DNA from: Dendrobates tinctorius
Lineage: Eukaryota
NCBI RefSeq assembly: GCF_039654945.1
Contig: NW_027361866.1
Span: 12,834,001-12,898,000, forward strand
DNA length: 64,000 bases
Direction: 5' to 3'
Part shown: piece by piece, positions 15,630 through 16,778 of the stretch
How positions within the stretch are numbered: the stretch's first letter is position 1
How the letters are laid out: the number at the start of each line of letters is the position of its first letter
The notes under the pieces: generated by a model
Told to the model about the DNA's origin: nothing
The model's input: the letters and a program-made list of their open reading frames with translations, nothing else
Database searches by the model: none
Position numbers and translations under genes: made by a program

Positions 15630-16778
15630 TCAGCCTCGTATGGCCCGTACGGCCGTCGAACTGCCACTGGCTGACATTCTTCGGCCACCTGCCATGTCAC
15701 TACTTGGAGGAACCCTTCGGGTCCTTACATCTTGGATTTGAGGCAGCCGCCACCTGGTATTCCGTACTTCTTTATTAATTCGCTGACGGTCCAGCCCCAA
15801 CTGCTCAATTTCTTGCAGGTACCCCACTCGAACCTCCATGAGCATTTGAAAGTCTCTCAGGCGCTTCACGGAGTCAACCACCATGATGGGAATCCTACCC
15901 TCTTCACTGGTTACCTGGTCTTCATCATCAGGAGGGATCCTCACCCTCACCACAGTGGAGATATTTACAAGGTCTTGCATTACCTTCCTGAATCTTGCAA
16001 TGATTTTCCCAATCAGACCTTTGGGTACCAGAACCACATCTTTCCGCAAACCCAGGGGATCCATAGCCTCCTTCGCTAACTCTAGGCGTCGAGCAGCCTT
16101 CATATTACTCCACCTGACCAGCTGTTTGGTGTGGAGACATTGTAAATGCATCTCTTTCAGGACAGCTACCCTGTTTGCAGTATCTTCTCTGGCTGATATC
16201 ACCAACTGCCGAGTCTCAGGTGCCCAGTGCACCTCACACGCCTTGACCGCCTCTTTGAAAGCCTCATGTACACCTTCCTCCGCACAGGCTCCTTGCATGT
16301 CTTCAGGTACCTCAATCACAGATTTGAAGGTCGTGGTCTTGCTCTCTTCCTGGACAGAAGACTCTGACTTTACCACGGACACTTCCCTCACTACAGTTGT
16401 CTCGACCGGGGGAATATCTTGTTCAGCTCTTAGCTCCCCAACTTCACAAAATCTCATCTCTTCACGACCCTCTGCCAAGACGGGCACCGGCAGCTCCATT
16501 CTACCACCAGTCGGACCCGGCCGCTGTACATCTCCGTCCAAGCTCTTCTCCCGCAGAAGACCTTTTACTACTCCTCTGAGTTCTTCCATCTCTTCCCTAA
16601 GAGTCTTGTTCACATTTTGCCACGTTGACAGGTGACCTCTGAGCTCCAAGACTTCATTCTCAAGCCCTTCCACCCTGTGCTCGGCCATTTGTCTCAGGAC
16701 TCTTTCTCGTTTGAGATGTTCTTCCACTGTCTCCTTTATTAACTGTATCTCATGATCTTGTACTCTTTTGGCCAGCAC
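15630..16778 (-). CDS. FXR1-like: Coiled coil fused to fragile-X-family (FXR1-like) KH0 + KH2 + NES region, encoded by the LTR element
   Basis: aa 149-237 FKSVIEVPEDMQGACAEEGVHEAFKEAVKAC..PETRQLVISAREDTANRVAVLKEMHL..TK match recalled FXR1 [58 protein letters not shown]..TK. aa 243-339 match KH2/NES [31 protein letters not shown]...[20 protein letters not shown]. Confidence 0.85.
   Translation of the reverse strand: MLAKRVQDHEIQLIKETVEEHLKRERVLRQMAEHRVEGLENEVLELRGHLSTWQNVNKTLREEMEELRGVVKGLLREKSLDGDVQRPGPTGGRMELPVPVLAEGREEMRFCEVGELRAEQDIPPVETTVVREVSVVKSESSVQEESKTTTFKSVIEVPEDMQGACAEEGVHEAFKEAVKACEVHWAPETRQLVISAREDTANRVAVLKEMHLQCLHTKQLVRWSNMKAARRLELAKEAMDPLGLRKDVVLVPKGLIGKIIARFRKVMQDLVNISTVVRVRIPPDDEDQVTSEEGRIPIMVVDSVKRLRDFQMLMEVRVGYLQEIEQLGLDRQRINKEVRNTRWRLPQIQDVRTRRVPPSSDMAGGRRMSASGSSTAVRAIRG

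Follow-up and report, generated by a model that had tools for sequence, protein, structure and literature searches.

A Gmr1-type retroelement family of poison frogs carrying a trimmed piece of host FXR1

A stretch of 64,000 nucleotides of the Dendrobates tinctorius genome (contig NW_027361866.1, positions 12,834,001 to 12,898,000), referred to here as the window, was analysed. It holds a decayed copy of a non-autonomous Gmr1-type retroelement family, the frame of which carries a trimmed, selected piece of host FXR1. The one frame is made up of a protease relic, a predicted coiled coil, and a KH0-helix-KH2-helix module that derives from FXR1.

Structure of the element

The features of the window copy are given below in element order, with window coordinates and strand.

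20475-20478 and 14476-14479 (+): target-site copies, GGTT on the right and GGCT on the left, with one mismatch
19703-20474 (-): 5' LTR (TG...CA), from direct repeats, 729 of 764 aligned bases identical to the 3' LTR
19683-19700 (-), 3' edge approximate: PBS, a decayed form of the family tRNA-Ala(AGC) PBS, from comparison with sister copies, autonomous elements, and tRNA-Ala genes
18454-19599 (no strand): later insertion, foreign to the family; its inverted arms are long and its target duplication is 16 bp (18438-18453 / 19600-19615)
17746-17872 (-): 39-bp tandem repeats in the leader
17417-17599 (-): start of the long frame, with short peptide repeats, the frame being broken here (tblastn with P0004 residues 1-61; tandem repeats)
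17001-17279 (-): relic of a Gmr1-type aspartic protease, active-site motif DSE (blastp against the L192 protease, E 1.7e-4; sister L058, 1.8e-14; alignment)
16782-16784 (-): in-frame stop
16557-16781 (-): predicted coiled coil, not FXR-derived (sequence pattern; weak coiled-coil-type Pfam matches in P0005; dN/dS 0.37-0.73 in pairs)
16092-16340 (-): KH0 and first coiled-coil helix (CC1), FXR1-derived (PF17904, E 8.4e-13; young-copy model at rmsd 1.1 A to FMRP KH0)
16068-16082 (-): junction of the 60-codon KH1 deletion
15816-16052 (-): KH2, FXR1-derived (2qnd match, E 1.7e-11; full KH fold in the young-copy model)
15987-15998 (-): KH2 loop, ARFR here and GxxG in most of the family
15753-15848 (-): second coiled-coil / NES helix (CC2), FXR1-derived (alignment; PF12235 in intact relatives; dN/dS 0.24)
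15150-15752 (-): Arg/Ser/Gly-rich tail running into the 3' LTR, with frame changes here
15272-15284 (-): polypurine tract (PPT), resembling that of the autonomous elements
14480-15269 (-): 3' LTR, from direct repeats, the LTR pair being 95.4% identical

Without the later 1.15-kb leader insertion, the window element is approximately 4.8 kb, the same as its sisters. The insertion, with arms of ~450 bp, resembles a non-LTR or Penelope-type insert. The family PBS matches the 3' end of tRNA-Ala(AGC) genes (L203, L205). Matches to the tRNA-Ala 3' end also recur every ~2.3 kb at G000:C250:10383167-10645912, which is probably a tRNA gene array; there are 655 such matches genome-wide.

Ty3/gypsy elements of the Gmr1 clade are defined by an integrase that precedes the RT and by a SCAN-like gag. 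The genome also holds autonomous elements of 5.2 kb, whose one frame, of 1,470 codons, runs SCAN-zinc knuckle-protease-integrase-RT-RNase H (L192), the Gmr1 arrangement. These elements (L192, L194, L195) and the FXR-bearing family have the same tRNA-Ala(AGC) PBS, a similar PPT, 4-bp target-site duplications (TSD), and TG..CA LTRs, and the relic in the family is homologous to their protease domain. The FXR-bearing family differs in having no gag, integrase, RT, or RNase H, with a coiled coil and the host FXR1 core instead. Searches against Pfam found neither SCAN-like gag nor zinc knuckle in the young intact frame L155 or in P0004-P0010, and the integrase, RT, and RNase H that are present in L192 were absent from L155. 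At only 4.8-5.1 kb, the elements have no room for these three enzymes. The shared PBS, PPT, and TSD and the homologous protease, in the absence of gag and pol, therefore make the family a non-autonomous Gmr1 derivative. From the shared cis signals we infer that it depends upon a helper. Among 20 loci checked for a helper with a matching LTR end and PBS there was none, 19 being members of the FXR-bearing family and one having other sequence after the PBS. L192 and L193 have no LTR match to the family.

The protease motif varies by subfamily, being DSG in some and DSE, ESE, or DPG in others, with homology at E 1.7e-4 to 1.8e-14. The relic is matched weakly in Pfam and PDB profile searches (E 0.03-1), and the N-terminal part gave only matches under 0.9 in the ESM Atlas. 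A cold-shock domain at the N-terminus was considered and dropped, the domain being the protease relic by its homology to the Gmr1 protease. Two protease relics stand in tandem in the young subfamily (L155:2888-6235, P0154-P0163); the RefSeq models for P0154-P0163 end unlike the genomic frame, which may be due to a predicted splice. No Rfam match was found within the element.

Elsewhere in the window, a Penelope-like element at 7111-14057 has weak RT and GIY-YIG matches and both direct and inverted terminal repeats. Two elements interrupt it: a Tc1-like transposon, whose open transposase frame spans 363 codons (12307-13561), and a small inverted-repeat element (9624-10152). A 443-codon open frame at 25306-26637 (+), without a Pfam match, lies beside 18-bp repeats and is flanked by 102-bp inverted repeats (24242-24343 / 26628-26729). 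At 38456-40403, an interstitial degenerate (TTAGGG)n adjoins four copies of a 389-bp tandem unit.

The FXR module and its KH2 loop

The module lies in a 383-codon frame at 15630-16781 on the minus strand. KH0 is recognized by PF17904 (E 8.4e-13) at residues 148-230, corresponding to window positions 16092-16340. Two parts of the frame match FMRP chains (4qw2, E 4e-13; 2qnd, E 1.7e-11) and the place of KH1 between them is empty. A first-pass annotation, made from the window sequence, had estimated an in-frame KH1 loss of about 60 amino acids; against host FXR1 the gap is exactly 60 residues, with 20 rather than 80 residues between two fixed columns, and it is family-wide. That annotation had also described the module as without Agenet domains or a proper RGG box. 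This agrees with the searches, in which Agenet had no Pfam match in the window frame, PF18336 and PF05641 had none in the window frame, its relatives, or the young L155, and RGG was absent from 15630-16781. A PF18336 search of the whole genome is uninformative on this point, as even the host genes, with the domain split by exons, went unmatched. The tails of intact relatives are Arg/Ser/Gly-rich, with 0-1 RGG and 4-6 RG pairs. The window copy is broken, with frame changes near 17417-17495, at 15636-15648, and at about 15290; the stop at 16782-16784 leaves it unable to make the full protein.

The KH2 loop of the window copy reads ARFR at 15987-15998 (-), as the first-pass annotation had it, and from this loss of GxxG together with the KH1 deletion the module had been said to look RNA-blind. 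Among the sister copies, taken as the 30 closest of the 41 loci listed, GxxG is kept in 21. ARFR is private to the window: the first Gly is present in 29 of the 30, being lost in the window alone, and the second is lost in nine, scattered as eight changes on a star-like and poorly resolved tree. Seven of the second-Gly losses are G>A at a CpG. For comparison, 28 CpG sites average 3.7 changed copies in 30 (range 1-10), as against 0.57 at other G. A sub-lineage of the window subfamily fixed for loss of the second Gly was considered and was not seen, with eight changes for nine copies.

Outside the sister set, all 30 young loci that were fetched read GRFG. GxxG is present in four of five Ranitomeya proteins and in all three Anomaloglossus proteins. 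Between subfamilies the middle residues of the loop vary (RF, RS, RL, RN, TN, RK), and all four Gly codons occur at the second Gly. An alignment of 46 rows that includes cellular FXR proteins shows no change at the first Gly and almost none at the second. The older, more decayed subfamilies have both Gly in only 9 of 19 scored copies, mostly through differing substitutions in single copies, several of them at CpG, and P0009 is without the second Gly. Of the two lesions, the KH1 deletion is family-wide (30 of 30 sisters), and the GxxG loss is not. The RNA-blind reading describes the decay of the window copy alone and the headline of an RNA-blind decoy should be dropped. One point in its favour is a small, broken, KH1-keeping lineage, found at five places, that has neither GxxG loop. 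Another suggestion of the first-pass annotation, a granule-targeting adaptor, stays plausible. At L040:5884-8047 (G000:C31), the FXR module occurs twice in tandem, one copy with GxxG and one without.

Origin of the captured sequence

The module had been proposed to be captured from an FXR gene, and phylogenetic trees bear this out: the poison-frog cargo groups with frog FXR1 with support of 98/94, on a long branch from host FXR1. Single residues hint at FMR1 or FXR2 as the donor of this module; the trees reject both. Eight exon stretches of host fxr1 are matched in L057, in order and intronless, at 62-77% DNA identity. A compact fxr2-like gene is present at G000:C2:833000-842999 (L053, L086) in D. 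tinctorius, besides fxr1 and fmr1. An FXR-like protein of the aphid Metopolophium dirhodum (P0013) has its KH0-KH1-KH2 block duplicated.

The KH1 deletion is present in all 30 sisters and in Ranitomeya. It is also present in all 18 rows of lineage A, the main lineage, spanning 60 residues in 15 and 63 in 3. An exon-skipped mRNA had been suggested as the template. The host fxr1 KH1 exon is 171 nt, or 57 codons, as against the 60 codons of the gap. Young copies retain the first codons of the KH1 exon ahead of the junction and are missing the first codons of the next exon, so both ends of the deletion are inside exons. In addition, element copies that keep KH1 exist. Exon skipping is therefore rejected.

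A search with host KH1 recovered fxr1, fmr1, fxr2, and four KH1-keeping element copies (7 of 9 candidates), and a DNA search found five places of this lineage, B. Lineage B has LTRs and a protease relic related to those of lineage A, host exons are matched in it in order and intronless, its four examined copies are all broken, and GxxG is missing in both of its KH domains. Anomaloglossus proteins keep KH1 without GxxG and have KH2 with GxxG. Lineages A and B and Anomaloglossus group at 95/87 beside frog FXR1 (93/85 in the other tree), in trees from which the KH1 columns were dropped, where B is one row on a long branch and the partial rows B0, B_L054, B_L056, and P0036 were left out. The simplest history is one capture from a full-length mRNA, starting just before KH0, followed by early loss of the KH1 loop and a later internal deletion in the lineage that expanded.

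Age and distribution of the family

The DNA search scored 40 of 2,927 first-look candidates, with 41 places listed, and the protein search scored 150 of 6,528, so that the counts from both are lower bounds and not copy numbers. A young subfamily, of at least 134 copies, makes up 134 of the 150 scored rows, these being 93-100% identical to P0154. The module is stop-free in 127 of these 134, and 76 lie in frames of 1,000 codons or more. Ten young copies were fetched, two of which are masked by microsatellites; the eight resolved have LTRs 99.5-100% identical and, without exception, a perfect 4-bp TSD. The window subfamily is older, with LTR identity of 94-97% in seven copies, and most older copies are broken.

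Homologues with names come from Dendrobates tinctorius, Ranitomeya imitator, and R. variabilis, all as predicted proteins, and in the tree the subfamilies of Dendrobates and Ranitomeya are interleaved. RefSeq predicts proteins from such frames in four dendrobatoid species. Contigs of four runs, three guessed to be RNA and one of unstated type, cover a young element, with no GT..AG joint among 15 of the 17 rows, a coverage that says nothing about expression.

An apparent second capture in Hyla sarda

Related predicted proteins are found in the tree frog Hyla sarda, in the P0179 cluster (eight members, on at least five distinct contigs) and in P0033 and P0060. They begin with a Gmr1 protease (E 4e-13), followed by a long coiled coil and KH0-KH1-KH2 without Agenet, and finish with the last residues of a Gmr1 pol. 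A related Hyla cluster, P0180, carries gag (E 1e-34). The Hyla cargo falls inside FMR1 with support of 100/99, and an AU test rejects a common origin of this cargo and the poison-frog modules (p-AU 1.9e-6, for a group named after a first tree was seen). The KH2 GxxG is present in 10 of 10 Hyla proteins and the KH1 GxxG in 9 of 10, and CC2 is there only in part. From these sequences, the tree frog appears to hold a separate FMR1 capture on the same Gmr1 chassis. Cluster P0180 has this chassis with short FMR-like scraps seen by eye, without a Pfam match. Several of the P0179, P0180, P0033, and P0060 proteins are annotated as myosin-, restin-, or Rad50-like.

Selection and predicted fold

Across three disjoint subfamily pairs, dN/dS is 0.37 (bootstrap 0.29-0.46), calculated by NG86 on natural copies, a method whose dS may come out too high through CpG decay and drift in base composition. 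By part, it is 0.22 for KH0, 0.60 (0.35-1.03) for CC1, 0.47 for KH2, and 0.24 for CC2. KH0 and the post-KH2 helix are the best-conserved parts, in keeping with the first-pass annotation, which had the interaction helices as kept. Values between subfamilies range from 0.15 to 0.45, with dS up to above 1. Pairs within subfamilies are higher (0.40-1.93), and changes private to a copy give 0.82 in 20 single-frame copies. The protease relic is weakly constrained (0.40-1.07) and the tail reaches 1.12 in one pair. Judged by these substitution ratios, the module is under purifying selection.

An AlphaFold2 model of a young copy (pLDDT 92.9, pTM 0.61) has KH0, a full KH2 fold, and the last helix. Its KH0 lies at rmsd 1.1 A to 4qw2, and one continuous helix, residues 54-96, runs across the deletion junction. 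The KH1 deletion is thus predicted to fuse two helices in register, leaving KH2 fully folded. A complex prediction of the module with frog FXR1, run without an alignment, gave 0.39 as against 0.51 for the control.

Possible function of the module

The best-supported reading, tentative and short of probable, is that the module is an adaptor acting in cis, with the family protein binding the RNA of its own element and bringing it into the FXR granules of the host. RNA would be bound by KH2 and the basic tail. CC1 and CC2 would associate with one another or with FXR proteins of the host, and valency would be raised by the coiled coil that the element adds. Loss of the Agenet pair may shed contacts with methyl-arginine and with silencing partners. 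Autonomous Gmr1 elements would supply Gag, RT, and integrase, and a helper would be likely to package the RNA. Most of the benefit would fall to the very RNA from which the protein was translated, as a product acting purely in trans would be shared with broken copies and so be poorly selected.

Retroviral RNA dimers use kissing loops. The isolated FXR KH2 binds kissing-complex RNA at ~40-60 nM and KH1 does not (PMC2722981). Assembly of the FXR1 network requires both coiled coils and mRNA binding (10.1101/2023.11.05.565677), and FXR proteins co-purify with LINE-1 ORF1p granules (PMC10289378). The adaptor reading is favoured by the retention of GxxG across subfamilies, the purifying selection, the folded model of a young copy, and the separate Hyla capture, which is likewise without Agenet and has the KH2 GxxG in 10 of 10 proteins. 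A kept loop is no proof of RNA binding, however, since the KH2 GxxG groove has also been modelled as a site for UBAP2L and viral peptides (PMC10897489). Also, as far less mRNA is bound by FXR1 in cells when KH1 carries the point mutation G266E (10.1101/2023.11.05.565677), a protein without KH1 may bind RNA poorly. Other observations count against the adaptor: loss of both loops did not keep the KH1-keeping lineage from reaching five places, CC1 is weakly constrained (0.60, interval to 1.03) and the Hyla proteins have a partial CC2, both Gly are present in only 9 of 19 older-subfamily copies, and the LTR bodies of the family were matched in none of the 20 loci checked for an autonomous element, nor in L192 or L193.

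Some of the same evidence would suit a protein acting in trans, one that uses its helices to enter host FXR complexes, or its KH2 to sequester UBAP2L, and in this way reduces FXR-dependent silencing, or stress-granule capture, of every Gmr1-type RNA. This keeps the idea of the first-pass annotation, less its RNA-blind part. The strongest constraint is on KH0 and CC2, loss of Agenet is common to both captures, and the KH1-keeping lineage does without either GxxG loop. In flies, transposon transcripts go up when FMR1 is lost, and Piwi proteins are among the partners of FMR1 (PMC5454977); viruses target the KH2 groove to keep FMRPs out of granules (PMC10897489). Against this, the sharing of a trans product with broken copies would fit poorly with long purifying selection in several parallel non-autonomous lineages, although it could still come about if each germ cell had its burst from a single expressed locus. 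The literature searched contained no role for vertebrate FXR1 in gypsy silencing, and a counter-defence in trans is considered rather unlikely.

The remaining explanations are less likely again. The protein could stand in for capsid and nucleocapsid, self-assembling through its coiled coils into a condensate or particle of its own, with KH2 and the basic tail as nucleocapsid and the protease relic meeting the helper Pol. The frame does occupy the gag-pol position, and the dendrobatid frames are without gag (Pfam, blastp) yet have a long coiled coil and a protease-fold relic, twice in the young subfamily; the weak constraint on this relic (dN/dS 0.40-1.07) and the gag remnants retained by the Hyla relatives of cluster P0180 make this improbable. 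That the FXR1 piece is filler, its open frame stabilising the RNA through translation to near the 3' LTR whatever the amino acids, would agree with the broken state of most older copies, the neutral tail in one pair (1.12), and the amplification of several subfamilies with quite different sequences. This passenger explanation is already weakened, and quite improbable, as amino-acid constraint is uneven and tracks the fold, Gly codons change silently, the deletion keeps the helix in register, and the part captured is the same in both of two independent events, each from a different paralogue. Lastly, the many intact frames and the RefSeq proteins in four dendrobatoid species might indicate a gene family domesticated by the host, kept as FXR1 modulators, for example in the germ line, with transposition incidental. 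Dispersed copies with fresh TSDs and near-identical LTRs, and copy-private changes that are near neutral, render this very improbable.

Relationship to known systems

The element module shares KH0, CC1, KH2 with GxxG, and CC2 with the FXR1/FMR1/FXR2 family. It differs in having no Agenet pair, no KH1 in the main lineage, and no RGG box, and in its extra protease relic and coiled coil. Non-autonomous LTR elements of the LARD and TRIM types have two LTRs, a PBS, and a PPT without pol, and their internal DNA is non-coding. The frog element is like them in its two LTRs, PBS and PPT, missing pol, and presumed helper dependence, and unlike them in that a single selected frame, as long as ~1,100 codons, fills its interior.

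Capture of host mRNA is known from defective transducing retroviruses. The closest described cases are the crocodilian ERV captures, CrocERV29 (KIT-ligand) and CrocERV31 (nectin3) (PMC4299795). These likewise gained an intronless host piece at the cost of their own coding sequence, under purifying selection. In contrast to them, the frog element is a gypsy without env, its RNA-granule cargo is fused into the element frame and remodelled by domain loss, the family is still amplifying, and capture appears to have occurred twice, from two paralogues. Bdelloid rotifer LTR retrotransposons are reported to have additional ORFs beside gag and pol (PMC5408684); extra genes are common to both, and the frog cargo replaces gag and pol instead of lying beside them. 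No paper on FXR capture by frog LTR elements was found in searches of the openly accessible literature, and an entry in a repeat library (Repbase, Dfam) may exist. 'FXR' and 'FMR' are absent from the main text of PMC11152451 and PMC4131045. The finding is the frog family and its double origin.

It could well be, at a confidence that falls just below probable, that these elements are an undescribed kind of retro-satellite, Gmr1-derived and pol-less, in which at least two independent Agenet-less fragile-X cores were placed behind a coiled coil as an RNA-granule adaptor that out-competes helpers, with the poison-frog core pared by selection to a minimal KH0-helix-KH2-helix.

Gene capture by retroelements is known; in this family an RNA-granule cargo replaces the replication genes and is selected in elements that are still inserting. 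That the same part was apparently captured twice, from two paralogues, suggests that FXR granules are a step in the life cycle of vertebrate gypsy elements, whether these pass through them or are held back by them. In addition, the family amounts to a deletion series of the fragile-X protein made by nature, with the KH1 loop lost, KH1 deleted, and the KH2 loop kept, that bears on the roles of KH1 and KH2. For annotation, it is probable that many gene models named 'FXR1-like' or 'FMR1 homolog' in these frogs are transposons.
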